Below are positions 26,058 to 44,704 of a stretch of DNA of 47,577 nt, piece by piece. The stretch's first letter is position 1, and every line of letters starts with the position of its first letter. Below the pieces are notes generated by a model. The model was not told the origin of the DNA and did no database searches. It was given only the letters and a program-made list of their open reading frames with translations. The position numbers were made by a program, and so were the translations under genes. This DNA is from Candidatus Anoxymicrobiaceae bacterium (lineage in GTDB: Bacteria > Actinomycetota > Geothermincolia > Fen-727 > Anoxymicrobiaceae), in the NCBI GenBank assembly GCA_036508635.1, contig DATCGY010000151.1, positions 1 to 47,577 of the forward strand, written 5' to 3'.

Positions 26058-27395
26058 ATGGGCGATACCCGCGACATAGAGTATGTCCTCGAAGCGGTGC
26101 GAGAGCATGACGTAAAGTTCATAAGGCTCTGGTTCACCGACATCCTCGGTTTTCTCAAGAGCTTCGCGATCACACGTGAAGAGCTCGAGGAAGCTCTCGA
26201 AGACGGCATGGGTTTCGACGGATCTTCGATCCAGGGCTTCGCCAGGATCGACGAGAGCGACATGATCGCCCAACCGGACCCTTCCACCTTCACTATCCTC
26301 CCGTGGCGTCCCAGCGGGCACAGTGCGGTCGCGCGCATGTTCTGCGACGTACTTGAGCCCGATCGGTCGCCGCACGCCGGTGACCCCCGGTACGTCCTGA
26401 AGAGAAACGTCGAGAAGGCAAAGAAGCTGGGCTACACGTACTACGTCGGCCCGGAGCTCGAGTACTATTACTTCGCGAGCTCTGAAGGCCCACCCGAAGT
26501 GCTCGACAGGGGAGGGTACTTTGACCTCACCCCGCTCGATCTCGCCAGTGACCTCAGGCGCGATACGGTGCTGACCCTCGAGGAGATGGGAATCGGCGTC
26601 GAATACAGCCACCACGAGGTCGGGCCGAGCCAGCACGAGATCGACCTAAGATATTCGGATGCGCTGCAGATGGCTGACAATGCCATGACATACCGCCTGG
26701 TGGTAAAGGAAGTCGCTCTGAAGCATGGAGTCCACGCCACGTTCATGCCGAAGCCGCTGTTCGGTGAGAACGGAAGCGGCATGCACACCCACATGTCACT
26801 GTTCAAGGGAGACAGCAACGCCTTCTTCGACCCGAACGACGAGTATTACCTGACAAAAGAAGCCAGGGGCTTTATCGGTGGCCTGATGAAATACGCCCAG
26901 GAGATCTGCCTGGTTACCAATCAATGGATAAACTCGTACAAGAGGCTTGTGCCGGGTTATGAGGCACCGGTATACCTGTCCTGGGCGCAGCGCAACCGCT
27001 CCGACATGATCAGGGTGCCCGTCTACAAGCCGGGTAAGGAAAAGGCTACGCGCGTCGAGTTCCGGTCGCCGGACCCCGCATGCAACCCGTATCTCGCTTT
27101 CTCAGCGATGCTGGCCGCGGGCCTCAAGGGCATAGAGGACAACATCGATCCGGGCGAGCCTGTCGAGAGGAACATCTACGAGATGAGCGAGGAAGAGCGC
27201 GGGAACCTCGGGATTGAGAGCCTTCCCGAGGACCTCTGGGAGGCCATCAAGCTAGCCGAGAAAAGTGATCTGCTCAGAGAGTGCCTGGGCGACCACGTAT
27301 TCGAGTTGCTCATAAGGGACAAGAAGATCGAGTGGGAGAAGTACAGGGCGGTAGTCACCGAGTACGAGCTCGAAAACTATTTATCGGTCCTGTAA
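26058..27395 (+). CDS. glnA: Glutamine synthetase, type I (short, GSI-alpha-like, 445 aa)
   Basis: The motifs are FTDILGFLKSF, GPELEYYYF, KPLFGENGSGMHTHMSLF and RVPVYKPGKEKATRVEFRSPDPACNPYLAF. An AGGAGG RBS is present. Confidence 0.96.
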   Translation: MGDTRDIEYVLEAVREHDVKFIRLWFTDILGFLKSFAITREELEEALEDGMGFDGSSIQGFARIDESDMIAQPDPSTFTILPWRPSGHSAVARMFCDVLEPDRSPHAGDPRYVLKRNVEKAKKLGYTYYVGPELEYYYFASSEGPPEVLDRGGYFDLTPLDLASDLRRDTVLTLEEMGIGVEYSHHEVGPSQHEIDLRYSDALQMADNAMTYRLVVKEVALKHGVHATFMPKPLFGENGSGMHTHMSLFKGDSNAFFDPNDEYYLTKEARGFIGGLMKYAQEICLVTNQWINSYKRLVPGYEAPVYLSWAQRNRSDMIRVPVYKPGKEKATRVEFRSPDPACNPYLAFSAMLAAGLKGIEDNIDPGEPVERNIYEMSEEERGNLGIESLPEDLWEAIKLAEKSDLLRECLGDHVFELLIRDKKIEWEKYRAVVTEYELENYLSVL

Positions 27396-34618: not shown

Positions 34619-34627
34619 GGAAAAAAC

Positions 34628-34742
34628 ATAGTCTTCGGGACAGGGTGAAATCCCCGACCGGCGGTATAGCCCGCGAGCTCCTCTGGAGCAGACCCGGTGA
34701 GATTCCGGGGCCGACGGTAACAGTCCGGATGGGAGAAGATAT
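34628..34742 (+). promoter_or_regulatory. FMN riboswitch (RFN element) aptamer
   Basis: The sequence tcttcgggacagggtgaaatccccgaccggcggtatagcccgcgagc...ggtgagattccggggccgacggtaacagtccggatgggagaaga matches the RFN consensus, including P1 closure (tcttc/gaaga). Confidence 0.95.
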
Positions 34743-34761
34743 CTGACCGTTGCGGTCAGTT

Positions 34762-34787
34762 GCGCCAGCTTCTCCTGGCGCTTTTTT
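34762..34787 (+). terminator. Riboswitch expression-platform terminator
   Basis: The hairpin gcgccag-cttctc-ctggcgc is followed by TTTTTT. It ends 32 nt before the ribD ATG. Confidence 0.85.
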
Positions 34788-34818
34788 GATCCCATCGACC
34801 CTGTCCCCAGGTGCAAAC

Positions 34819-35970
34819 ATGGATTTTTTTCAGAGCGGAGAGAGAAATATAGCGGGAATGCGCCCCCCGGACGCCGGATCGGTGGACGAGCGGATGATGA
34901 TGCGCGCGCTCGAACTGGCCGAGAAAGGAAGGGGCATGACGTCTCCCAATCCCGTCGTAGGTGCGGTTATCGCAAGGGGCGACCAGGTTATCTCCGAGGG
35001 ATACCACGAGAGGGTCGGAGGGCCGCATGCCGAGATAAATGCGCTCGACAGCGCTCCGGGCGGCCTCCGCGGGGCCACCATGTATGTCACGCTCGAGCCG
35101 TGCTCTCACCAGGGCAGAACGCCGCCGTGCGCTCCGAGAGTGGCGGATTCGGGCATTGAGAGGGTCGTGATAGCCGTTCGCGATCCAAACCCGCAGGTCG
35201 CCGGCGGGGGAGAGGCGCTCCTCAAAGATCACGGCGTCGAGGTCTCTGTAGGCCTCTTCGGCCGGTTCGCCCTCAGGCAGAATGAAGAGTACCTGAAATG
35301 GGTGAGGACTCGCAGGCCTTTCGTGACATTGAAGATGGCGATGAGCCTCGACGGCAAGGTGGCCACGAGGACGGGCGATTCCAAGTGGATATCTTCGGAA
35401 ATATCCAGGGCCGATGTTCAGCGCGCCAGGGCGGCAAGCGACGCGGTCATGGTCGGTATCGGAACCGTGATGAGCGACAATCCCCGACTGAACGTGCGGG
35501 ATTTAGAGGGAGTCCGACAGCCACTGAGGGTCGTCGTTGACAGCTTTGCCAGGACGCCGGTCGGGAGCAATGTCGCTGATAGCTCGATGGCGCCGACGCT
35601 CCTGGCCGTCTCCGAGAATGCTCCTGGGGAGAGTATCCGGGCACTCGAAGCAACAGGTGTCGAGCTCATGAGGCTCGACGACGCCGGGAAGGTCGACCTT
35701 GGAGCCCTATTGGAGCTGCTCGGCGAGCGTGGAGTGACTTCTTTGCTCGTTGAGGGAGGACCGGAACTTGCTCGAGGTGTGTGGCAGGCAGGGTTGGTCG
35801 ATAAGTTCGTGTTCTACTTTGCTCCCAAGATAGTGGGCGGGTGCGAGGCGCCTGGGCCGGTCGGTGGGACCGGGGTTGCCTGCATGAAGGAGGCCGGGCC
35901 GCTCACGATAGATGCTGCTTTCGAGATGGGTCCAGATTTAAAGGTGGTCGCGTACCCGGGGGGAGAGTGA
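34819..35970 (+). CDS. ribD: Bifunctional diaminohydroxyphosphoribosylaminopyrimidine deaminase / 5-amino-6-(5-phosphoribosylamino)uracil reductase
   Basis: The motifs are SPNPVVGAVI, HAEINAL and LEPCSHQGRTPPC, followed by the reductase domain. The track start of 34750 would span the terminator, so it was rejected. Confidence 0.93.
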   Translation: MDFFQSGERNIAGMRPPDAGSVDERMMMRALELAEKGRGMTSPNPVVGAVIARGDQVISEGYHERVGGPHAEINALDSAPGGLRGATMYVTLEPCSHQGRTPPCAPRVADSGIERVVIAVRDPNPQVAGGGEALLKDHGVEVSVGLFGRFALRQNEEYLKWVRTRRPFVTLKMAMSLDGKVATRTGDSKWISSEISRADVQRARAASDAVMVGIGTVMSDNPRLNVRDLEGVRQPLRVVVDSFARTPVGSNVADSSMAPTLLAVSENAPGESIRALEATGVELMRLDDAGKVDLGALLELLGERGVTSLLVEGGPELARGVWQAGLVDKFVFYFAPKIVGGCEAPGPVGGTGVACMKEAGPLTIDAAFEMGPDLKVVAYPGGE

Positions 35971-35971
35971 G

Positions 35972-36631
35972 TTGTTCACCGGAGTTATCGAGGAGAAAGG
36001 CACGGTCGCCGGGCTGACCGCCGACGGAAAGCTGAGGGTCTCCGCGCGCACGGTGCTCGAGGGTACCAGGATAGGCGACTCCATAGCCGTATCGGGGGTT
36101 TGCCTGACGGTCGTGGAGCTCGATTCAAGCAGTTTCACGGTTGACGTGATGCCTGAGACGCTGCGCAGCAGCGCACTGGCCGACGTGAGGACGGGCAGGC
36201 AGGTCAACCTCGAGCGGGCCATGGGTGCGGGCGGGCGTTTCGGCGGGCACCTGGTCAACGGACACGTCGACGGCGTTGGGACGGTTGGCGGCATAAGGCG
36301 CGAGGCCAACGCGGTGGTCATCGAGATATCGACTCCCGTGGACATCACGCATTACATGGTGCCCAAGGGTTCAGTTGCGATCGACGGGATAAGCCTGACG
36401 ATAGTCGAGGTCTCGCGTGGCCGATTCACAATCTCCGTCATCCCGCACACTCTCGATGAGACGACTCTAGACGACGCCCGCGCGGGCACCCGCGTGAACC
36501 TCGAGGTCGATATTATCGCCAAGTACGTGGAGTCTTTTCTTGCGCGTGACGGAACGCCGGAACAGGCGCCAAGCGGAGGAATAGGGGAAGCCCTGTACCG
36601 GGGTGGTTTTACCTCCGGTCAGGAAGGCTAA
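35972..36631 (+). CDS. ribE: Riboflavin synthase (alpha chain)
   Basis: The protein starts MFTGVIEEKGTV. It has the duplicated barrel with GDSIAVSGVCLTV and GSVAIDGISLTI. Confidence 0.93.
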   Translation: MFTGVIEEKGTVAGLTADGKLRVSARTVLEGTRIGDSIAVSGVCLTVVELDSSSFTVDVMPETLRSSALADVRTGRQVNLERAMGAGGRFGGHLVNGHVDGVGTVGGIRREANAVVIEISTPVDITHYMVPKGSVAIDGISLTIVEVSRGRFTISVIPHTLDETTLDDARAGTRVNLEVDIIAKYVESFLARDGTPEQAPSGGIGEALYRGGFTSGQEG

Positions 36632-36653
36632 CTGAGGAAAGTGAGGTAAGAGT

Positions 36654-37871
36654 ATGCCTTTCAGCACCATTGACGAGGCTATCGAGGAGCTGAAGGCGGG
36701 ACACCTGATAATCGTAGTCGACGACGAGGATCGAGAAAACGAAGGCGACCTTGTCTGCTCGGCTCAGATGGTGACGCCCGAGATCATCAACTTCATGAGC
36801 AAAAACGGCAGGGGTCTGATATGCATGCCGTGCATCGCCCACAGGCTCGACGAGTTGGAGATACCCGCCATGGTTGAGGACAACACCAGCGCGCAGGGAA
36901 CCGCGTTCACGGTTTCCATCGGGGCAAAGGGCAAGATCACCACGGGTATATCCGCCTACGACCGGGCGGCCACGATACAAGCGGTGATCAACCCCGAGAC
37001 CATGCCCGAAGATATCAGCAAGCCAGGGCACGTATTCCCGTTGAGGGCCAGGAACGGCGGCGTTCTAACGCGCGCGGGACACACGGAAGCAGCGGTGGAC
37101 CTGGCCCGTATGGCCGGGCATTTTCCCGCTGGTGTCATATGCGAGATCATGCATGAAGACGGCACCATGGCTCGCGTTCCCGAGCTGGAGAAAATAGCCA
37201 AGAAATTAGGCCTGAAGATGATCACGGTGGCCGACCTCATAAAGTACCGCATCGAAAAGGAGCAGTTGGTGGAACGCGTATCGGAGGCGAAGCTGCCCAC
37301 CGCTTACGGTGACTTCAGGGCGATTGGGTTCGAGAGCAAGGTCGACGGTACATTCCATCTGGCGCTGGTGAAGGGCGACGTTGCCGGAAAGAAGGACGTG
37401 CTGGTGCGGGTGCACAGTGAATGCCTGACCGGTGACGTATTCGGGTCGCGCCGGTGCGACTGCGGCTCGCAGGTCGCCGAGGCGCTCCTGAGGATAGAGG
37501 CCGAGGGGGAGGGCGTCTTCCTCTACATGATAGGACATGAGGGCAGGGGTATCGGGCTCGCTCACAAGCTCCGGGCCTACCAGCTCCAGGACATGGGTCT
37601 CGATACGGTCGAGGCGAACATCGAGCTCGGTCTTCCTGTGGATGCCCGCGACTACGGCACCGGGGCGCAGATACTCCGTGACCTCGGGATAACATCGATG
37701 AGGCTTTTGACAAATAACCCCGCAAAGAGGGTTGGCCTCGAAGGCTACGGGCTGTCCGTCAGCGAGCGTGTGTCCCTGGAGATCGAGCCATGCGAGGAGA
37801 ACCTCCGTTACCTCACGGTCAAGAAAGAGAAGATGGACCACATGCTCGATTTAGAAAAAACGAAGAAATAG
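36654..37871 (+). CDS. ribBA: Bifunctional 3,4-dihydroxy-2-butanone-4-phosphate synthase / GTP cyclohydrolase II
   Basis: The motifs are DDEDRENEGDL, HTEAAVDLA, and VRVHSECLTGDVFGSRRCDCG with the zinc site. Confidence 0.95.
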   Translation: MPFSTIDEAIEELKAGHLIIVVDDEDRENEGDLVCSAQMVTPEIINFMSKNGRGLICMPCIAHRLDELEIPAMVEDNTSAQGTAFTVSIGAKGKITTGISAYDRAATIQAVINPETMPEDISKPGHVFPLRARNGGVLTRAGHTEAAVDLARMAGHFPAGVICEIMHEDGTMARVPELEKIAKKLGLKMITVADLIKYRIEKEQLVERVSEAKLPTAYGDFRAIGFESKVDGTFHLALVKGDVAGKKDVLVRVHSECLTGDVFGSRRCDCGSQVAEALLRIEAEGEGVFLYMIGHEGRGIGLAHKLRAYQLQDMGLDTVEANIELGLPVDARDYGTGAQILRDLGITSMRLLTNNPAKRVGLEGYGLSVSERVSLEIEPCEENLRYLTVKKEKMDHMLDLEKTKK

Positions 37872-37954
37872 CGAGCTCTTGAAACACAGTCCATGCAATC
37901 GATGTGACGGGGCCCCGGGACGTCACTCCGGGCCTCTGACGGGAGGAGGAAGTA

Positions 37955-38416
37955 ATGGGGACATTCGAGGGAAAACTGATTGCCAGGAATCTAAAGTTCG
38001 GCATCGTAGTGAGCCGGTTCAACGAGTTCATAAGCAAGAACCTTCTGGAAGGAGCGCTGGATTCGCTAAAGAGACACGAGGCGTTGGCCGAAAATATTGA
38101 TGTGGCGTGGGTGCCGGGCTCATTCGAGATACCGCTCGTGGCCCAGAAGCTGGCAAGGTCCGGCAGGTACGACGCGGTGGTATGTCTTGGGGCGGTCATC
38201 CGGGGTAATACGCCTCATTTTGACTATGTGGCCGCGGAGGTCTCAAAGGGAGTTGCGCGTGTCGGACTCGACTCCGACGTGCCTGTTATCTTCGGGATAA
38301 TAACCGCGGACACGCTCGAACAGGCTGTGGACAGGGCAGGTGCCAAGGCCGGAAACAAAGGCTGGCAGGCGGCGCTCACCGCCATAGAGATGGCAAACCT
38401 GATGTCCGCTTTATAG
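37955..38416 (+). CDS. ribH: 6,7-dimethyl-8-ribityllumazine synthase
   Basis: The motifs are [34 protein letters not shown] and GNKG. A GGAGGAGG RBS is present. Confidence 0.95.
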
Positions 38417-38570
38417 CATCCGGATTGAGCGGGAGACGGCTGCATGAATACTTAGACGTTACGCCGCGGTGGGCGGGACGGCCGATACGGATGCCTGACC
38501 GTCGCTAGAGCACCTTTTGCGATGCTCGAACGTTATAGAGTGCTGACAGGCTACAGGTGCGGGGGTTTTG

Positions 38571-40676
38571 ATGAGCAGGATGCTTTCGAGGTCTGACGAT
38601 GGCAAGTTTTTCGCGCTCGAGCTATTGACGACCAGGCGCGCTGAAGTCCTGGCGAGGATAGCGGAAGACGAGTCCCCTTCAACTTCGTTTTATTCTTTCC
38701 TCAAATTAACGCGCAAGAAGTACTTCGTATCGTACCTGGACCAGTTGAAAGAAGCCCTGGAAGCGGACGACGTGACGGACTTCCTGGGTAACGAGACGTT
38801 TCAGAGCTACTCACATGCCAAAAATGGCTTCTCCATGAAAGAAGTATTGAGCGTTCCGTCCATCGTCGAGAGAGCCATAACGGGGCTCGCGGCGGACCTG
38901 GTCGACTCGGGCGACGTCAAGGCGGGTGACGCGATGAACGCGACTCTCCTCATTCACGACATGCTTGGCCAGGCGGGGACCATCAGAGCAGAATCGTTCA
39001 CTCAGACTCGCGACGAGATAGTAAGGTTCTATCACTCGTACCAGGAGGAGATCGACCGCTTTCCGAGCAACCTCGCGGCCACCCTGGATTTCAGCACTCT
39101 GCTGCTTTCCGCGGTCAAGAAGTGCAGGGACCTGGTCGGTGCCGAGCGTTGCGCGTTCTTCACAAGGGACCTCCTCACCAACGAACTCCACCTTGAAGCA
39201 TCGAACTTCGACGAGAAGACGTTCGGTGATGGCGTCGTCGCGCTCGACGATCCGATCGTCAAGAAGCTGGTACACCAGCGCGAATCTTTCATGGTCGAAG
39301 GCTATCCGCGTAGCATGCCTCACATCTCGGCGCTGATGAGGACGGCCAGGACCAGGCGTATGGCGCTGGTGCCGCTACTCGTGCGTGACCGGAATGTCGG
39401 CGTCATGATGCTGGACAACGTCGAGAATCCACAGATCTTCACGACGGAGACGATGAACCTCGCCGAGAGGTTAGCCAACAAGGTAGCCGCGTCGATGGAG
39501 AACGCGCGGCTCCACGGAAGCGAGCAGAAGAAGCTGAAGGAGACCATCGCGCTCCTGGAAGTCTCTCGCCTCGTCACTTCGACCCTTGACATCGACGTGC
39601 TGCTCTCGCGGCTCGTTCAGATAACCGCTGACGTCTGTGAGGTCGGCAAGTGCACCATGTACATCTACCTCGAGGAAGGTGGGCGTTTCTTCCCGACGGC
39701 CACGTTCGGGATGTTCCCCGATTCCGAGTGGGAGACGGCCCTGTCCGCCGGGGTCCTTCCCGGCGACATCGTCTCGGAAGAGATCGCCGCGCTTATGCGG
39801 AATGAGGTTGCGGTCTCCGAGGCACTTCTATCGCCTTTCATACCGCCTGACCGCCTGAAGGATACGGGCGTCAAGTCCGTTATGCTCGTGCCCATCAGCT
39901 CCCGGGATCATCTCCTGGGGATAATGGGGCTGTTCTACGACAAGGAGCGCGACGAGCTCGACGGCGAGGACCTGAACCTGGTCAGTGCCATAGCCGGCCA
40001 GGCCGCGGTGGCTATGGATAACGCCTCACTGTACGAAGACCTCGAGATGAGCTATTTCTCTACGGTGAAAGCTCTCGCGAGGGCTATAGAGGTGAAGGAC
40101 CCGTACACCTACGGGCACTCCGAGCGTGTGACCGAGTACGCGATGGTCATCGGAAAGAAGCTCGACCTCTCGGAGTGGGACCTGCGCAACCTCAAGTACG
40201 CGGCGGCCCTCCATGACATCGGAAAGCTTGGGATCTCGGGGCATATCCTGAACAAGCCCGGAGCCCTTTCCGAAGACGAGTTCGTCCACATAAAAACACA
40301 CCCGCAGATGGGTGATTCCATCATGGAGCCGGTCAGCTTCCTCAAGGAGCCGCGGGAGATAATACTTCACCACCACGAGCGTTGGGACGGCAATGGCTAC
40401 CCGGAAGGCCTCAAGGGTAATAAGATCCCTCTTGGCGCAAGGATACTCTCAGTCGCCGACTCGTTCGAAGCCATGATGTCAGACCGCCCATACCGCAAGG
40501 CTCTAGACCTTCAGGACGCGATAAAGGAGATCGAGGACAACGCCGGAACGCAGTTCGACCCGGTGGTCGTGACGGCGTTCATCGCTGCTCTGGACGAGGA
40601 CGGGGGCCAAGTGGTGATCAGCTTTTCCGAGGCGGTCCAGGACGAGCCTGACGATGCCGTGAGCGAGTTGGACTAG
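38571..40676 (+). CDS. GAF-GAF-HD-GYP cyclic-dinucleotide phosphodiesterase
   Basis: The C-terminal motifs are HSERVTEY..AAALHDIGKLGI..HHHERWDGNGYPEGL..ADSFEAMMSDRPYR. The central region has GAF-like sequence. Confidence 0.85.
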   Translation: MSRMLSRSDDGKFFALELLTTRRAEVLARIAEDESPSTSFYSFLKLTRKKYFVSYLDQLKEALEADDVTDFLGNETFQSYSHAKNGFSMKEVLSVPSIVERAITGLAADLVDSGDVKAGDAMNATLLIHDMLGQAGTIRAESFTQTRDEIVRFYHSYQEEIDRFPSNLAATLDFSTLLLSAVKKCRDLVGAERCAFFTRDLLTNELHLEASNFDEKTFGDGVVALDDPIVKKLVHQRESFMVEGYPRSMPHISALMRTARTRRMALVPLLVRDRNVGVMMLDNVENPQIFTTETMNLAERLANKVAASMENARLHGSEQKKLKETIALLEVSRLVTSTLDIDVLLSRLVQITADVCEVGKCTMYIYLEEGGRFFPTATFGMFPDSEWETALSAGVLPGDIVSEEIAALMRNEVAVSEALLSPFIPPDRLKDTGVKSVMLVPISSRDHLLGIMGLFYDKERDELDGEDLNLVSAIAGQAAVAMDNASLYEDLEMSYFSTVKALARAIEVKDPYTYGHSERVTEYAMVIGKKLDLSEWDLRNLKYAAALHDIGKLGISGHILNKPGALSEDEFVHIKTHPQMGDSIMEPVSFLKEPREIILHHHERWDGNGYPEGLKGNKIPLGARILSVADSFEAMMSDRPYRKALDLQDAIKEIEDNAGTQFDPVVVTAFIAALDEDGGQVVISFSEAVQDEPDDAVSELD

Positions 40677-40708
40677 ACGAGCGGCACAGCTTTTCCCGTA
40701 GAACGGTT

Positions 40709-42865
40709 CTACTTTTCGTGGACAGGTAGCGTAAAACAGAAGGTGCTTCCCCTGCCTTCGCTGCTGTCAGCCCAGATCTTGCCTCCGTGCATCTCAACAA
40801 TCTCGCGCGAGATCGCGAGCCCGAGGCCGAATCCGCCCCTGTCGTTGACCTCTCCCGAGTGTGCCTGGAAGAAACGGTCGAAGATGTGGGGAAGCGCGGA
40901 TGCGGGGATACCCACACCGTTGTCAGTGACCTGCACCTGGAGGAACGAGCCGTTCCTGAGCACCGTCGTCTCCACGATCCCTCCCGCCTCTGTGTACTTG
41001 ATGGCGTTGCTGATTATGTTCGTCAGGACCTGAGCGATCCGGTCGGGGTCGGCTTCCGCCAGCGGCAGGTCGTCGGCTACTCGCGTGCGCAGCTCCACCT
41101 GGTTTGCCTCGGCGCTGTTTGAGAGATGCAACGAGACGGCTTTTATGACCTGCTCTATGTTAGCGGGCATTATCGTCGTCTTGATCCTCCTGGCCTGGAG
41201 CCTCGACAAGTCGAGGAGGTCCTCGATCATCCTTGTGAGGTTCTCGGCTTGCTCGCTCACGATGTTGAGGTACTCCGACTGTTGTGGAGTGAGCGACCCG
41301 GCCCGGCCTGCGAGCAGGAGGCTCACGAACCCCGAGATGCTGGTAAGCGGTGTCCGAAGCTCGTGAGAGACATTCGACACGAAGTTAGATTTGAGCTCGT
41401 CGATGCGCTTGAGTTCGGTGATATCGTGGAGGAAGAGCACCATCCCGGTCACACCACCGACCTGGTCTTTGAGCGGTATGAACTGTGCCTGAGCGTGTGC
41501 CTGTGTCTCACCGGCGAACGAAATTTCGCCGAAGATATTACGTCCTTCGAGAACAGCTACGACGGCCTCTCGAGGTGAGTAAACGCCGAGGTTCGCATCG
41601 CGCAGCGCGGGCTCGAGGACTTCGATAAGGGGCATTCCGATTGCGCTCGAGCTTATGTCCAGAAGTCGTTCGGCCACGGGGTTAGTCTGGATCAGGACGC
41701 CTTCGGAGTCCGTCACCAGAAGGCCTTCGCGGAGAGCCGATAATATGGTCTCGACTTTCGTTTTTTCGTCGAGAGCGCTCGTATAGAGACGGGCCTTCTC
41801 GACTGCGACAGCCGACTGGCTGGCGAGGGTAGACAGAACTTCGAGATGGGCTTCCTTGAACGCGCGCGGAGCGGGGGAGAAACACATGAGGTACCCCGCC
41901 ACATCGCGACCCACGAGCATAGGCACGGCCGCGATGCCGAAGGTCCCGCCTACGTCCTGCAGCGGGAGCCATTCAAGTGAGACGTTCTCGGCAACCACGT
42001 CTTCACCATTTCTCAGGCGGTAGAGCCAACCCTCGCCTTCGGGAAGAATCGTGGGAGCTGTCTTTACGATCGGGAGCGTCCCAAGCGCGGCCCTGAGATG
42101 CTGTTCACCTTCTTCGGAGAGGAACACCAGCGCACCATCGGATGAGAGCATCTTACGGGCGAGCGCCGCGGTTGTCTCGATAACCGCATCGAGTTCGAGC
42201 GTATAGGAGAATTTCCTGCTCACGTTATAGATAAGCGAGATATCGCGCTCTTTCTCCATTGAAAGGTCGAGGAGGTGTCGGTACTCGATCGACTCACGGG
42301 CGTACATCCGCTCACCTTCGAACACGTAGCATGCGATATATCCCACGACGAAGTAAGCGAAGGCTGTAAGCGCCAGCCAGAAGTGAGCGAGCGCGCTGAC
42401 GTTCACGCTGACGTATGGCAGGTACCTCACGAGCGCAGTTGCGGCGGCGACGATCATCGTCCCAGGGTAGCTGTAGTATGCGGCGGCCGAGATCGGGACC
42501 AGGAAGAAGAGAAAGCTTAACTGGCTGGCACGACCGCCTGTAAGGTACACGATGCTGGATATGACGCCCAGGCATGCGAGCATGAGCAGGAAGAACGCGA
42601 ACGGACGGTATTTCTTGAACGGCACGTAGTGGTTGCCGAAGAGGAGCAGCGCGTACGAGATGCACATGGCCACGATACCCCAGGGATACCGCGCCTTGTC
42701 CCAGACGATACTGTAGACGAACACCGAGGCAACCAGGACGGTCCAGAGGAGCTGTATGCCGGGACGTGCGGTCACGAACAGCAGCTGGCTCATCTCGCCG
42801 CTGGCGGACCGATCCGGCGGTGAGGTCTTCTCACCCTTTCTTGTCATCAATCTTCGATAATCCAT
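40709..42865 (-). CDS. Membrane sensor histidine kinase (multi-TM, GAF, PAS, HisKA, HATPase_c)
   Basis: The H-box is SHELRTPLTSI. The N, G1 and G2 boxes are NAIKYT, DNGVGI and GGFGLGLAI. About 6 N-terminal TM helices are predicted. Confidence 0.9.
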   Translation of the reverse strand: MDYRRLMTRKGEKTSPPDRSASGEMSQLLFVTARPGIQLLWTVLVASVFVYSIVWDKARYPWGIVAMCISYALLLFGNHYVPFKKYRPFAFFLLMLACLGVISSIVYLTGGRASQLSFLFFLVPISAAAYYSYPGTMIVAAATALVRYLPYVSVNVSALAHFWLALTAFAYFVVGYIACYVFEGERMYARESIEYRHLLDLSMEKERDISLIYNVSRKFSYTLELDAVIETTAALARKMLSSDGALVFLSEEGEQHLRAALGTLPIVKTAPTILPEGEGWLYRLRNGEDVVAENVSLEWLPLQDVGGTFGIAAVPMLVGRDVAGYLMCFSPAPRAFKEAHLEVLSTLASQSAVAVEKARLYTSALDEKTKVETILSALREGLLVTDSEGVLIQTNPVAERLLDISSSAIGMPLIEVLEPALRDANLGVYSPREAVVAVLEGRNIFGEISFAGETQAHAQAQFIPLKDQVGGVTGMVLFLHDITELKRIDELKSNFVSNVSHELRTPLTSISGFVSLLLAGRAGSLTPQQSEYLNIVSEQAENLTRMIEDLLDLSRLQARRIKTTIMPANIEQVIKAVSLHLSNSAEANQVELRTRVADDLPLAEADPDRIAQVLTNIISNAIKYTEAGGIVETTVLRNGSFLQVQVTDNGVGIPASALPHIFDRFFQAHSGEVNDRGGFGLGLAISREIVEMHGGKIWADSSEGRGSTFCFTLPVHEK

Positions 42866-42933
42866 GGCTGCACGATATTTACCGTTAGCGTTGGAGCACT
42901 AGTCTGGAGACCCCCCGGAGAGCGCAGGTCGAC

Positions 42934-43872
42934 CTAGGTCTTCCTCCGGTCGAATACGTACACACTGCCCTCGAGGTCTTTTGCGTATTTTTTCAGCTCG
43001 GCCGCGACACGGCCTATCTGGGCCGCGTCAGCAAGCTGCCTGTACTCATTATGGACGATGGAGATCGATATCGTCATCACGGGGAACTTCATCACGTAAC
43101 CCCGGCGGTCCACCGAGACGATATAGCCCTTCTCCAGGTCCTCGGGCTGGTAGCAAGAAGGTATCTCTTCGTCGAAGAGACGTACGATCTCCCTGGCAAC
43201 GTCCTCGGCCTTATCGATCGAGGTCAGGATTATGAAGTCGTCCCCACCGACATGTCCGAGGAAGTCCTCATCGTTGCCTTTCTCGTCAATGGCCCGTCTC
43301 AGGAGCTGCCCGGTCATCTTGATGACCTCGCTACCTGAGTTGAAACCGTAGAAATCGTTGTATGCCTTGAAGTCGTCGAGGTCGACATACATGAACGCGA
43401 ACTTCTCGCCGGACTCGATGCGTTCATCGAGCTTATTGCCGATCGACTTGTTTCCGGGAAGTTCGGTTATCGGGCTCATGTCCGTCTCGCGCTGGTAGCG
43501 CCTGAGGTGCATCTCGATCCGCGCCTGGAGCTCCATCGGGTCGAACGGTTTGGTTATATAATCGTCAGCACCCGACTCTATACCGTCGAGCTTGTCCTTG
43601 AGTTGAGCCTTGGCCGTCAGCATCAGTATGGGGATATTGCTCGTCTGGGGGTTGCCCCTCATTAGACGGCAGATCTCGAGCCCGTCGAGGCCCGGCATCA
43701 TTACGTCAAGGAGGACGAGGTCCGGTCGCAGGCTACGTACTATGTCCCACGCTTCGGTCCCGTCCGCGGCCTGGTACACATCGAACTTATGCTTTGGCAA
43801 CGCCTCAGTAAGGAGCTGGCGAAGGTTGTGGTCATCGTCAGCAATCAGGACCTTTGGCCTGGGCTGCAGCAT
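42934..43872 (-). CDS. Response regulator with a divergent GGDEF-type nucleotide cyclase domain (REC-GGDDF)
   Basis: The REC domain is canonical (DDD, D56 in LLDVMMPG, LTA, KPF). The cyclase domain has DLDDFKAYNDFYGFNSGSEVI and GHVGGDDFIIL. Confidence 0.85.
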   Translation of the reverse strand: MLQPRPKVLIADDDHNLRQLLTEALPKHKFDVYQAADGTEAWDIVRSLRPDLVLLDVMMPGLDGLEICRLMRGNPQTSNIPILMLTAKAQLKDKLDGIESGADDYITKPFDPMELQARIEMHLRRYQRETDMSPITELPGNKSIGNKLDERIESGEKFAFMYVDLDDFKAYNDFYGFNSGSEVIKMTGQLLRRAIDEKGNDEDFLGHVGGDDFIILTSIDKAEDVAREIVRLFDEEIPSCYQPEDLEKGYIVSVDRRGYVMKFPVMTISISIVHNEYRQLADAAQIGRVAAELKKYAKDLEGSVYVFDRRKT

Positions 43873-43961
43873 TCATTACCGCCTTTCGTCTTCTAAAGAA
43901 TAATATAACCGTCAGGCGATGGCCAACGCTCGCGCCGTCCAGGCGGATAAAGGCCCCCCCG

Positions 43962-43991
43962 TTGGACATATATCGGTGCTTTCGCTATACT
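43962..43991 (+). promoter_or_regulatory. Candidate promoter of the infC-rpmI-rplT operon
   Basis: TTGGAC (43962-43967), an 18-nt spacer, then TATACT (43986-43991). Confidence 0.4.
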
Positions 43992-44098
43992 TTCCTAAAA
44001 CTTGATAAGCAGGAGCGAAATGCCGCTCCTCACCTTGCGGTGCCAATCGAAATCGAAGAGGCAAAGGTTGCCAGCAAGGTTATCCATACGGATAGAAA

Positions 44099-44126
44099 AG
44101 GGTGGCATTTTGCCACTCTTTTTTTT
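44099..44126 (+). terminator. Attenuator terminator in the infC leader (L20-leader-like arrangement)
   Basis: The sequence agggtggca-ttt-tgccactct forms a 9-bp stem with one G-U pair, followed by T8. It sits between the candidate promoter and the infC RBS, and no plus-strand gene lies upstream. Confidence 0.6.
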
Positions 44127-44158
44127 CAAGGACTTGCGCGGCATAAGGAGGGGTTGCC

Positions 44159-44704
44159 ATAACCGGAAAGCTTAGGGTCAACGAGACGATTCGGTGTCCG
44201 CAGGTGAGGCTTATCGACGCGACGGGTGAGCAGCTGGGCATAAAACCGATTGAGGAAGCTCAGAGGATCGCTCTCGAACAGGACCTAGACCTGGTTGAAG
44301 TCGCGCCTCAGGCGAGTCCGCCTGTGTGCAAGATAATGGACTATAGCAAGTTCTGCTACGAGCAGGAGCAAAAGCAGAAGGCCGCTCGAAAAAAGCAGAG
44401 CATAATTGTGGTCAAAGAGATGAAGATGCGCCCCAAGATCGACATCCATGACTACGACACCAAGAAGAAACACGTGGTGAGGTTTCTGCAGCAGGGGAAC
44501 AAGGTCAAAGTGACGATCATGTTCCGAGGCCGTGAGATGACACATACGGAGCTCGGCTTGAATCTCCTGAATAAGCTGGCTGAAGAGCTCGCGGAGATGG
44601 CGACGGTTGAGGCCAGGCCCAGGCTCGATGGGCGCAACATGACAATGGTTCTTGCACCCATAGTGGCCGTGGAACCCAAAGCCGAGTCTACAAAGGAGCC
44701 GTGA
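44159..44704 (+). CDS. infC: Translation initiation factor IF-3, with a non-canonical ATA start
   Basis: The conserved N-terminus [25 protein letters not shown] lies upstream of the first GTG. An in-frame TAA at 44144 limits the ORF. ATA 44159 lies 7 nt after AAGGAGG. Confidence 0.85.

Follow-up and report, generated by a model that had tools for sequence, protein, structure and literature searches.

Introduction

Response regulators of the PleD, WspR and DgcR type join a receiver (REC) domain through a linker to a GGDEF cyclase domain and are activated by rearrangement of their dimers. Canonical diguanylate cyclases are recognized by a GG[DE]EF motif, an Asp that reads the guanine base (D344 of PleD) and, commonly, an RxxD inhibitory site (I-site). 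A REC-GGDEF architecture is also found in GacA (GSU1658 / Gmet_1914) and Bd0367, which are Hypr cGAMP synthases (PMC6456294, PMC9140294) with Ser at the specificity position (S348 in GacA), and for GacA it is established that this Ser can form a hydrogen bond to guanine or adenine. According to the so-called Goldilocks model, Hypr activity needs this Ser together with Asp at the third position of the signature motif (PMC6456294), and cGAMP-dominant Hypr enzymes have a residue other than Arg at the cross-dimer position (GacA Y304 / PleD R300). Ser at the specificity position is nevertheless no guarantee of cGAMP, as the Ser-type enzymes Cabther_A1065 and Ddes1475 mostly make c-di-GMP, and Hypr GGDEFs also yield c-di-AMP and accept other purine NTPs (PMC6456294).

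In 2022, a second Hypr cGAMP/c-di-GMP synthase was described in Geobacter sulfurreducens and shown to be active with a GGDDF motif (PMC8835794). This HAMP-containing protein, GSU1937, is the only GGDEF protein of that organism besides GacA with the specificity Ser, and expression of its GGDDF domain in E. coli yielded cGAMP as well as c-di-GMP, the latter, for the fusion, at a level comparable to that of GacA (PMC8835794). It also adds to in vivo cGAMP reporter activity, and a G-to-A mutation in the motif abolished its activity, while neither the wild-type protein nor three of its four fusion constructs showed activity in E. coli (PMC8835794).

Results and discussion

A receiver-linked GGDDF protein in Geothermincolia

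We analysed a response regulator gene of an uncultured actinobacterial lineage (Actinomycetota, class Geothermincolia) together with the whole 47.6-kb stretch of DNA around it, which we call the window (Table 1). The start codon is backed by 120 homologues that are mostly 312 aa long as well, and Pfam recognizes Response_reg (7e-32) and GGDEF (7.5e-15, 55.5 bits) in the protein. The receiver is canonical, just as the first-pass annotation of this DNA had described it: The Pfam match is full-length and all phospho-acceptor residues are kept, comprising the acidic pocket D12/D13, D56 (codon 43705..43707; opposite the phospho-acceptor D53 of PleD in the HMMER alignment), T86 and K108, which are invariant or nearly so among homologues. 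PleD, WspR and DgcR have the same REC-linker-GGDEF layout with complete phospho-acceptor residues and were the top full-length Foldseek matches; the window protein is close in size to the minimal DgcR, and the dimer-rearrangement logic of their activation is likely common to it. Its NCBIfam scores, however, lie far below the cut-offs of these families (PleD, 158 vs 474; DgcR, 83 vs 500).

Table 1. Features of the REC-GGDDF locus, with positions counted from the first letter of the window.
Feature	Position	Strand	Basis
312-aa REC-GGDDF response regulator gene	42934..43872	minus	ORF list and sequence; stop codon included
Receiver (REC) domain, residues 8-120	43513..43851	minus	Pfam, profile positions 1-111 of 111
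GGDEF-fold output domain, GGDDF subfamily, residues 131-311	42940..43482	minus	AF2 model, Foldseek, family profile vs PDB
LPGNK (residues 138-142), counterpart of the canonical LxGLxNRR turn	43447..43461	minus	HMMER alignments; exact register uncertain
Ser181 codon agc, base-reading specificity position (PleD D344 / GacA S348)	43330..43332	minus	Sequence and HMMER alignment
N200-D-E-D203 at the RxxD inhibitory-site position	43264..43275	minus	HMMER alignment to PleD
H207-V-G-G-D-D-F213, GGDDF signature after His (PleD R366 position)	43234..43254	minus	Sequence
Putative partner kinase, a 718-aa membrane sensor histidine kinase	40709..42865	minus	Pfam and hydropathy
GAF-GAF-HD-GYP phosphodiesterase, 702 aa	38568..40676	plus	Pfam HD_5 1.6e-43; convergent with the kinase

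Residues and fold of the output domain

HMMER alignment to PleD (PDB 9g85/1w25) reproduced the earlier hand alignment throughout, pairing D164 (codon gac, 43383..43381, minus strand) with D327, K169 with K332, N172 with N335, S181 with D344 and H207 with R366. The sequence N200-D-E-D203 falls opposite R359xxD362 and GGDDF (residues 209-213, ggt ggg gac gac ttc, 43248..43234, minus strand) opposite GGEEF, and the agc codon of Ser181 was likewise found where it had been placed. Compared with enzymes of the PleD type, the window domain thus has Asp344 changed to Ser, Arg366 to His, GG[DE]EF to GGDDF and RxxD to NxxD, and so departs from canonical diguanylate cyclases at the motif, the guanine-reading position and the I-site alike. 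The third motif residue, D211, is Asp rather than Glu and forms with Ser181 the pair that the Ser/GGD rule of the Goldilocks model names, while the fourth, Asp212, stands in place of the Glu general base of Hypr GGDEFs. Among 121 close homologues, Ser181 is found in 118, GGDDF and His207 in every one, and LPGN is invariant.

The LPGNK turn includes the residue that aligns with the cross-dimer Arg. HMMER alignments with PleD and TM1788 set N141 opposite the first Arg of the canonical turn and K142 opposite the second, with a shift of the register by one residue being possible; the basic residue (Lys or Arg) that the window clade has at 142, adjacent to the cross-dimer position, would favour guanine if the loop were shifted in this way.

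An AF2 model of the output domain reached a pLDDT of 95.4 and a pTM of 0.90. Because receiver domains swamped the full-length Foldseek search, we searched with a model of the output domain only, and all 50 matches listed, with TM of about 0.65-0.71, were GGDEF domains, Hypr GacA (6d9m) among them; the model matched GGDEF cyclases over its full length.

GGDD is the motif of the Cas10 palm, and the first-pass annotation had pointed to the cyclic oligoadenylates made there. A Cas10- or mCpol-like palm making cyclic oligoadenylates or 2'-5'-linked products would fit the motif and a weak Pfam match to Cas10-Cmr2_palm2 (E 0.0054), but we regard it as very unlikely: This match scores 17.3 bits against a curated cut-off of 27 bits and the 55.5 bits of GGDEF, the family profile retrieved only GGDEF chains from the PDB with no Cas10 or mCpol chain even at E<=10, the 50 Foldseek matches listed are GGDEF cyclases, and the surroundings are those of a two-component system amid housekeeping genes rather than of a defence locus. 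The analogy to Cas10 fails on these grounds, and we rejected kinship with Cas10 or mCpol.

Could the domain instead be a degenerate, catalytically dead GGDEF whose phosphorylation-controlled role is to act as a receptor for nucleotides or to bind other proteins? GGDDF deviates from the [G/A/S]G[D/E]E[F/Y] pattern, the Pfam GGDEF model covers only the first two thirds of the output domain, and the GGDDF-EAL protein PA3258 is without a cyclase phenotype (PMC8835794). A putative catalytic set of D164, K169, N172, D211, D212, K298 and R309/R310 is nevertheless almost invariant in the 121 homologues, its first six positions also across 160 subfamily domains, which argues against a dead domain, and the metal-, phosphate- and base-contacting positions are all invariant across hundreds of clusters. 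The whole domain is moreover predicted with high confidence to fold as GGDEF, it has no I-site with which to bind a dinucleotide, and a GGDDF domain of the same subfamily is active while its G-to-A motif mutant is inactive (PMC8835794). We therefore consider a dead domain very unlikely.

The closest characterised relative is probably GSU1937

A gapless alignment of 185 aa gives the output domain 44% identity (163 bits) to AAR35313.1 of G. sulfurreducens PCA, a Ser-type TM-HAMP-GGDDF protein, and identity to other proteins of Geobacter, Geomonas and Desulfuromonadales is 43-47%. From its match to the published description (PMC8835794), and not from a locus-tag look-up, we deduce that AAR35313.1 is GSU1937. 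Both proteins have the specificity Ser, His before GGDDF, the LPGN turn and no RxxD, as well as a common C-terminal signature, Y..ED..G.I..DR.G..FP..SI...K...GS.Y..RR, and each genome has an HD-GYP gene close by. They differ in host (Actinomycetota vs Desulfuromonadota), at position 142 (Lys/Arg in the window clade, Ile/Leu in the Geobacter group) and in their input, which is a receiver with a putative partner kinase in the window and a transmembrane 4HB/HAMP sensor in GSU1937; the transmembrane HAMP input of the GSU1937-like group is absent from the window protein and REC is found instead.

GacA and Bd0367 resemble the window protein in architecture, specificity Ser, third-position Asp and GGDEF fold (Foldseek TM 0.71 for the window domain against 6d9m). 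GacA, however, belongs to the canonical sequence family, which the Pfam GGDEF model spans end to end, and has a GGDEF motif with the Glu general base and an I-site that binds c-di-GMP (R393), whereas the window domain has GGDDF, lacks RxxD, diverges in its C-terminal half and has four more residues separating Ser from the GG motif. With 29 bits to 6d9m as compared to 163 bits to AAR35313.1, the window domain is far closer to the GSU1937 group.

The combination of Ser and GGDDF is less novel than the first-pass annotation had assumed, since GSU1937 is a published and tested precedent. Its reading of the gene as Hypr-type is supported in part, by Ser181, the third-position Asp, homology to GSU1937 and a receiver in a conserved operon with a kinase, and loses the Cas10 analogy, some of its novelty and, as set out below, GGDDF, His207 and the missing RxxD as evidence. 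In our judgement, the window protein is a real Hypr-like cyclase that is probably active, and as its output domain is close to the Geobacter cGAMP/c-di-GMP enzyme, it plausibly adds a new case from an uncultured actinobacterial lineage to a type of enzyme known before.

A large GGDDF subfamily with a variable base-reading residue

GGDDF, His207, LPGN and the absence of RxxD are the marks of a large GGDEF subfamily comprising 895 representative clusters (E<=1e-30). About 70% of its members have Asp as the base-reading residue, about 14% Ser and about 11% Asn. Across 160 subfamily domains, position 181 holds Asp in 113, Ser in 22 and Asn in 17, while His is found at position 207 in 148 and GGDD in about 155; at position 200, the four residues seen most often are N, S, T and D, without Arg. 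The Asp-type members (uncharacterised proteins of Omnitrophota, Gemmatimonadota, Chloroflexota, Clostridia and others) share the subfamily signatures and often the REC-GGDDF layout of the window protein, but differ from it by keeping Asp to read guanine and, in many cases, by a fused EAL, HD-GYP, CBS or MshEN domain. Most representatives of the Ser type come from Geobacter and relatives and have a TM-HAMP-GGDDF layout, and those scanned were HAMP-linked. GGDDF, His207 and the missing I-site had been taken as further signs of altered specificity; since Asp-type members share all three, we rejected them as independent evidence.

The subfamily also bears on the possibility that the window protein is in practice a phosphorylation-controlled diguanylate cyclase, with GGDDF marking a c-di-GMP family whose Ser variant makes mainly or only c-di-GMP in vivo. 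That Asp holds the specificity position in 113 of 160 domains speaks for this reading, as do the fusions of subfamily members to c-di-GMP modules (EAL, HD-GYP, MshEN), the guanine-reading Rxx[K/R] motif of the neighbouring HD-GYP protein, the Ser-type GGDEFs that mostly make c-di-GMP (PMC6456294) and the GacA-like c-di-GMP level of the GSU1937 fusion (PMC8835794). Lys/Arg142 may also be a guanine-favouring cross-dimer residue, although HMMER sets that position at Asn141, which is not basic. Against it, the closest characterised relative adds to cGAMP in its native host (PMC8835794), and Ser181 is near-invariant throughout a deep clade whose members fall to about 47-55% full-length identity, which implies selection for something that Asp cannot supply. 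Taken together, we see a c-di-GMP enzyme as possible but doubtful.

Asn at the specificity position co-varies with a change of LPGN to LPGG, which suggests a pocket adapted to different products. Such variants, together with the c-di-AMP and the use of other purine NTPs seen with Hypr GGDEFs (PMC6456294), would suit an enzyme that is mainly a diadenylate or other non-guanine purine cyclase, its preference shifted to ATP by Ser181 and an altered pocket (His207, Asn141). We think this improbable, as the window protein retains N172, the residue through which GacA and PleD read the sugar face of the base, and GSU1937 yielded cGAMP and c-di-GMP, not c-di-AMP (PMC8835794). It further counts against an enzyme of this kind that the GGDEF family offers no precedent: Among its characterised members, we know of none that is adenine-specific.

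A neighbor-joining tree places the window clade with other Ser- and Asn-type domains, with which it shares 143A, 145E, 161C, 283P and a hydrophobic residue at 307. When the two diagnostic columns were removed, the sister group was mostly Ser/Asn in a weak 88 of 200 bootstrap replicates, so that placement with the Geobacter Ser-type clade is tentative.

Proposed function

Our preferred reading, to which we give about an even chance, is that the window gene encodes a two-component response regulator with an active cyclic-dinucleotide cyclase output of the GSU1937-like Hypr GGDDF branch. Asp56 would be phosphorylated by the downstream membrane GAF-PAS histidine kinase, and the ensuing rearrangement of the receiver dimer would bring two GGDDF domains head-to-head, as in PleD, WspR and DgcR. 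By homology, D164, D211 and Mg2+ would hold one NTP in each half-site, where K298 would contact the phosphates and N172 the sugar face of the base. Since Ser181 replaces the guanine-specific Asp and would be able to bond guanine or adenine as in GacA, GTP and ATP could both be taken and 3',3'-cGAMP made alongside c-di-GMP, with Asp212 presumably replacing the Glu general base. Without RxxD, there should be no product feedback through a primary I-site and the kinase would set the output, while the neighbouring GAF-GAF-HD-GYP protein may degrade the product. Besides the residues and the kinship with the Geobacter enzyme, the tree, the conserved operon and the more frequent HD-GYP neighbours of Ser-type loci speak for this reading. 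Against it speak the c-di-GMP bias of some Ser-type enzymes, Asp at the general-base position, the inactive GSU1937 constructs, Lys/Arg142 in the case of a shifted loop, the weak bootstrap support, the RPYR motif of the neighbouring HD-GYP and the lack of GEMM-type riboswitches in the loci surveyed.

More tentatively, we propose that GGDDF represents an unrecognised radiation of GGDEF domains with a retuned base-reading residue (Asp, Ser or Asn, with LPGN changes) and varied dinucleotides, and that the window clade has the first two-component 3',3'-cGAMP pathway in Actinomycetota. If so, this pathway would consist of sensor kinase, REC-GGDDF synthase and neighbouring HD-GYP phosphodiesterase, and Hypr-type cGAMP signalling would reach well past the Deltaproteobacteria-type lineages studied so far. 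If cGAMP is made, GGDEF-derived cGAMP signalling with a classical two-component input would be present in the deep-branching, uncultured class Geothermincolia, for which we know of no description of such a pathway. To our knowledge, GGDDF has so far been regarded as an oddity, a "degenerate" motif of which one active example is known. It marks a large and coherent GGDEF subfamily whose specificity position holds Asp, Ser or Asn, and this variety makes the subfamily a natural set for testing how GGDEF enzymes choose their nucleotides. For annotation, GGDDF proteins should neither be called diguanylate cyclases automatically nor be dismissed as inactive.

Operon and neighbouring phosphodiesterase

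The kinase gene lies directly downstream of the REC-GGDDF gene on the same strand, after a gap of 68 bp, where the first-pass annotation had placed it. By hydropathy and Pfam, N-terminal hydrophobic segments are followed by GAF, PAS, HisKA (H-box SHELRTPL) and HATPase_c domains, and the order of response regulator and then kinase is conserved in relatives at 78% and 55% identity. A promoter and terminator scan of 40500..44250 gave no operon-relevant signal above background. A riboswitch survey of the window and 101 kb of related loci gave no hit to a GEMM family; those found in the window and 11 related loci were of the FMN type only.

The GAF-GAF-HD-GYP enzyme is a likely candidate for the partner that degrades the signal. 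Its top PDB match is the V. cholerae 3'3'-cGAMP phosphodiesterase 3 (5z7c, 8e-50), followed by PmGH, and its motif is RPYR, the canonical Rxx[K/R] form and not the RxxQ/N of cGAMP-selective PmxA-type enzymes. We considered this motif as a read-out of the messenger and rejected it, since all neighbouring HD-GYPs have RPY[RK], a form also found in the cGAMP-degrading V-cGAPs. The HD-GYP gene is adjacent to the operon in locus L001, co-directional and overlapping with it in L034 and absent in L003. Across the loci compared, an HD-GYP gene lies near 6 of 28 of the Ser type and 1 of 51 of the Asp type.

Residue mapping, fold and conservation

The response regulator combines a complete receiver domain (residues 8-120, E = 7e-32 in Pfam) with a GGDEF domain (E = 7.5e-15) whose Pfam match spans only positions 5-105 of the 161-position profile. 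The first-pass annotation had aligned the protein to PleD by hand with Ser181 opposite D344, the base-reading residue, and an independent HMMER alignment gave the same result (with D164 on D327, K169 on K332, N172 on N335, N200xxD203 on R359xxD362, H207 on R366, GGDDF on GGEEF, and receiver residue D56 on the phospho-acceptor D53); its coordinates for Ser181, GGDDF and Asp164 were all right when checked on the minus-strand sequence.

Coordinates of features in the window and of HD-GYP genes at related Ser-type loci
Feature	Position	Strand	Basis or remark
Glycyl-radical enzyme, 1000 aa	1925..4927	plus	PFL-like (5.6e-165) and Gly_radical
Putative ORF, 600 aa	5158..6960	minus	no Pfam match at E<=1e-5
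OmpR-type winged-helix protein, 227 aa	25206..25889	plus	Trans_reg_C, 3e-27
Glutamine synthetase	26058..27395	plus	directly downstream of the OmpR-type gene
FMN riboswitch	34627..34744	plus	111.8 bits; precedes riboflavin operon (34750..38416)
GAF-GAF-HD-GYP gene	38568..40676	plus	convergent with kinase gene
Histidine kinase, 718 aa		minus	68 bp downstream of REC-GGDDF gene; Pfam, hydropathy
REC-GGDDF ORF, 312 aa	42934..43872	minus	ORF and sequence
G209-G-D-D-F213 motif	43248..43234	minus	sequence
Ser181 codon (agc)	43332..43330	minus	sequence
Asp164 codon	43383..43381	minus	sequence
HD-GYP, locus L034	1458-3467
HD-GYP, locus L084	5026-7311
HD-GYP, locus L008	5968-8379
HD-GYP, locus L006	5752-6846
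HD-GYP, locus L026	3607-5642

The full-length AF2 model (pLDDT 88.6) matches WspR, PleD and DgcR, and a domain-only model (pLDDT 95.4, pTM 0.90) aligns with GGDEF cyclases, including the Hypr enzyme GacA (6d9m), over about 180 columns at TM 0.65-0.71, so that the C-terminal half missed by Pfam is predicted to have the usual GGDEF fold, to which a short helical segment (residues 241-248) is added. The GGDD motif had also suggested an analogy to Cas10 and cyclic oligoadenylates, which we rejected: all 50 matches listed for the domain-only model are GGDEF domains, the subfamily profile retrieved only GGDEF chains and no Cas10 from the PDB at E<=10, and the Cas10 palm2 Pfam match of the protein lies under its cut-off.

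Among the matches listed from a search of about 5.8 billion proteins were at least 120 homologues (46-98% identity, mostly 312-330 aa), the few named ones coming from Candidatus Anoxymicrobiaceae, Geothermincolia or Geothermincolales, or unclassified Actinomycetota. Position 181 is Ser in 118 of 121 aligned sequences (Asp in 2, Thr in 1), while GGDDF, His207, D164, K169 and K298 are invariant and N172, R309 and R310 nearly so. This pattern points to strong purifying selection on the whole set of presumed metal, phosphate and base contacts, which argues against a degenerate, inactive domain.

The GGDDF subfamily

When residues 127-312 were run exhaustively with HMMER against 1.84 billion cluster representatives, 895 clusters scored E<=1e-30, and the 150 matches listed span nearly the entire domain. 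Column statistics over 160 subfamily domains revealed GGDD(F/Y) in about 155, a His before the motif in 148, an LPGN turn in place of LxGLxNRR, an RxxD position at which Arg is not among the most frequent residues, and a C-terminal half with a pattern of its own (Y..ED..G.I..DR.G..FP..S....N......AAE.K..AK..GS.Y..DRR). The GGDDF motif, His207 and the loss of the I-site, earlier taken as additional signs of a changed product, are thus subfamily-wide traits and do not count as extra evidence. Judged from these alignments, only the specificity position varies among the protein's odd features (Asp 113, Ser 22, Asn 17 of 160), and Ser181 is its sole diagnostic change. We regard this variation and the HD-GYP association described below as the more interesting by-products of the analysis.

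Some Asp-type members are fused to EAL, HD-GYP, CBS or a second REC domain, and one Asn-type protein is fused to MshEN (P0262, 466 aa, REC-GGDDF-MshEN). MshEN is a known c-di-GMP receptor domain, and together these fusions place the subfamily within cyclic-dinucleotide signalling. The Asn type (P0149, P0154, P0160, P0167 and others; loci L004, L010, L012, L025 and L075) forms a third variant that almost always carries LPGG at the turn including the cross-dimer position (PleD R300 / GacA Y304); this co-variation of Asn with the LPGN-to-LPGG change hints at yet another nucleotide preference. Six proteins of about 750-790 aa (P0127, P0135, P0137, P0175, P0192 and P0212) match only partially in an N-terminal GGDDF-motif domain that looks degenerate, with the Lys/Asn/Asp pocket residues lost and the specificity position occupied by E, K or Q, while their C-terminal copy is intact; the one scanned for architecture, P0127, reads GGDDF-EAL-CBS-GGDDF.

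A characterized relative in Geobacter

The combination of Ser and GGDDF is already known from G. sulfurreducens GSU1937, where it lies behind transmembrane/HAMP modules (PMC8835794). GSU1937 adds to in vivo cGAMP reporter activity, most on Fe(III) citrate, and one fusion of its GGDDF domain to the GacA REC domain yielded both cGAMP and c-di-GMP in E. coli, whereas a Gly-to-Ala change in the motif abolished activity; the authors describe it as the first active GGDDF-motif enzyme, with many deltaproteobacterial homologues, and state that GacA alone among the other G. sulfurreducens GGDEF proteins shares its Hypr Ser (PMC8835794). All 8 Ser-type representatives that we scanned with Pfam have the HAMP-GGDDF layout, in some cases with a 4HB_MCP or CHASE3 sensor domain, and the first matches of a genome scan with the Ser-type alignment were in Geobacter, Geomonas, Desulfuromonadales, Syntrophales and Nitrospirota. 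A second protein search recovered AAR35313.1 of G. sulfurreducens PCA (436 aa, HAMP-GGDEF in Pfam), which we deduce to be GSU1937 from the published description rather than by locus tag, since GSU1937 is the only Ser-type GGDEF protein there other than GacA and has HAMP and GGDDF. Window residues 127-311 align to it without gaps at 44% identity, Ser on Ser and GGDDF on GGDDF. The earlier reading of a Hypr candidate is reasonable and now has a characterized homologue behind it; the protein appears to be the actinobacterial counterpart, with a REC input, of the GSU1937-type Hypr GGDDF cyclase and not a new enzyme class.

In a neighbor-joining tree, the REC-linked clade sits in a 54-domain group in which every member but one fragment is of Ser or Asn type and none is of Asp type. 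A143, E145, C161, P283 and a hydrophobic residue 307 are common to this clade and other Ser/Asn types and mostly absent from Asp types. With the two diagnostic columns removed, support was weak: of 200 bootstrap replicates, 88 gave this clade a sister group made up mainly of Ser/Asn types and 31 one made up wholly of Asp types. A common origin with the Geobacter type is thus suggested and not shown.

Kinase, HD-GYP neighbors and likely mechanism

The kinase (hydrophobic N-terminal segments, GAF, PAS, HisKA, HATPase_c) is indeed encoded immediately downstream on the same strand, and this order is retained at the related loci L001 (78% identity) and L003 (55% identity; genes overlap). L001 also has the convergent HD-GYP gene, which L003 lacks. 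At L034, from another actinobacterial MAG, an HD-GYP ORF and the REC-GGDDF ORF lie on one strand, the former overlapping the start of the latter. Two Geobacter genomes, that of G. sulfurreducens included, carry a GAF-containing HD-GYP gene some 0.7 kb downstream of the gene for the HAMP-GGDDF protein. Overall, an HD-GYP gene lies within a few kb at 6/28 Ser-type versus 1/51 Asp-type loci (Fisher p = 0.007; 0.03 with scan-derived loci alone), though these loci are phylogenetically non-independent; the six Ser-type loci with an HD-GYP gene come from Actinomycetota, Geobacter, Syntrophales and one deltaproteobacterial MAG. The best PDB match of the window HD-GYP is V. cholerae cGAMP phosphodiesterase 3 (8e-50), and its motif is the canonical RPYR, not the RxxQ/N of cGAMP-selective PmxA-type enzymes. 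All neighboring HD-GYPs carry RPY[RK], and this does not discriminate between messengers. A survey for GEMM riboswitches, proposed earlier for the GEMM-Ib class, found none, either in the window or across 101 kb of sequence from related loci.

The analysis establishes the fold, the mapping of residues, their conservation, the homology and the synteny; the following scheme of phosphotransfer, catalysis, product and phosphodiesterase pairing is inferred, and we consider it the most likely. The membrane kinase would phosphorylate Asp56, and the receiver dimer would rearrange as in PleD, WspR and DgcR so that two GGDDF domains meet. Each half-site would hold one purine NTP with Mg2+ via D164 and D211, its base read by Ser181 and N172 without discrimination between G and A, as in the GacA structure (PMC6456294), and Asp212 would act across the dimer as general base. 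Both 3',3'-cGAMP and c-di-GMP would be made, and their ratio would depend on the cross-dimer residue and on cellular NTP levels. Feedback through the primary I-site would be absent without RxxD, and the neighboring HD-GYP probably clears the signal. The main rival is a diguanylate cyclase in effect, as some Ser-type enzymes are, and Lys/Arg142 adjoining the cross-dimer position could favor guanine.

Remainder of the window

The other genes are ordinary chromosomal ones. About 200 N-terminal residues of the glycyl-radical enzyme form an extension with no Pfam match. No receiver domain was found at E<=1e-5 in the 227-aa OmpR-type protein, which resembles an atypical GlnR-like regulator. The riboflavin operon comprises ribD, ribE, ribBA and ribH, as judged by synteny with L001, and its arrangement with the FMN riboswitch adjoins the regulator-kinase operon in L001 and L003 as well.
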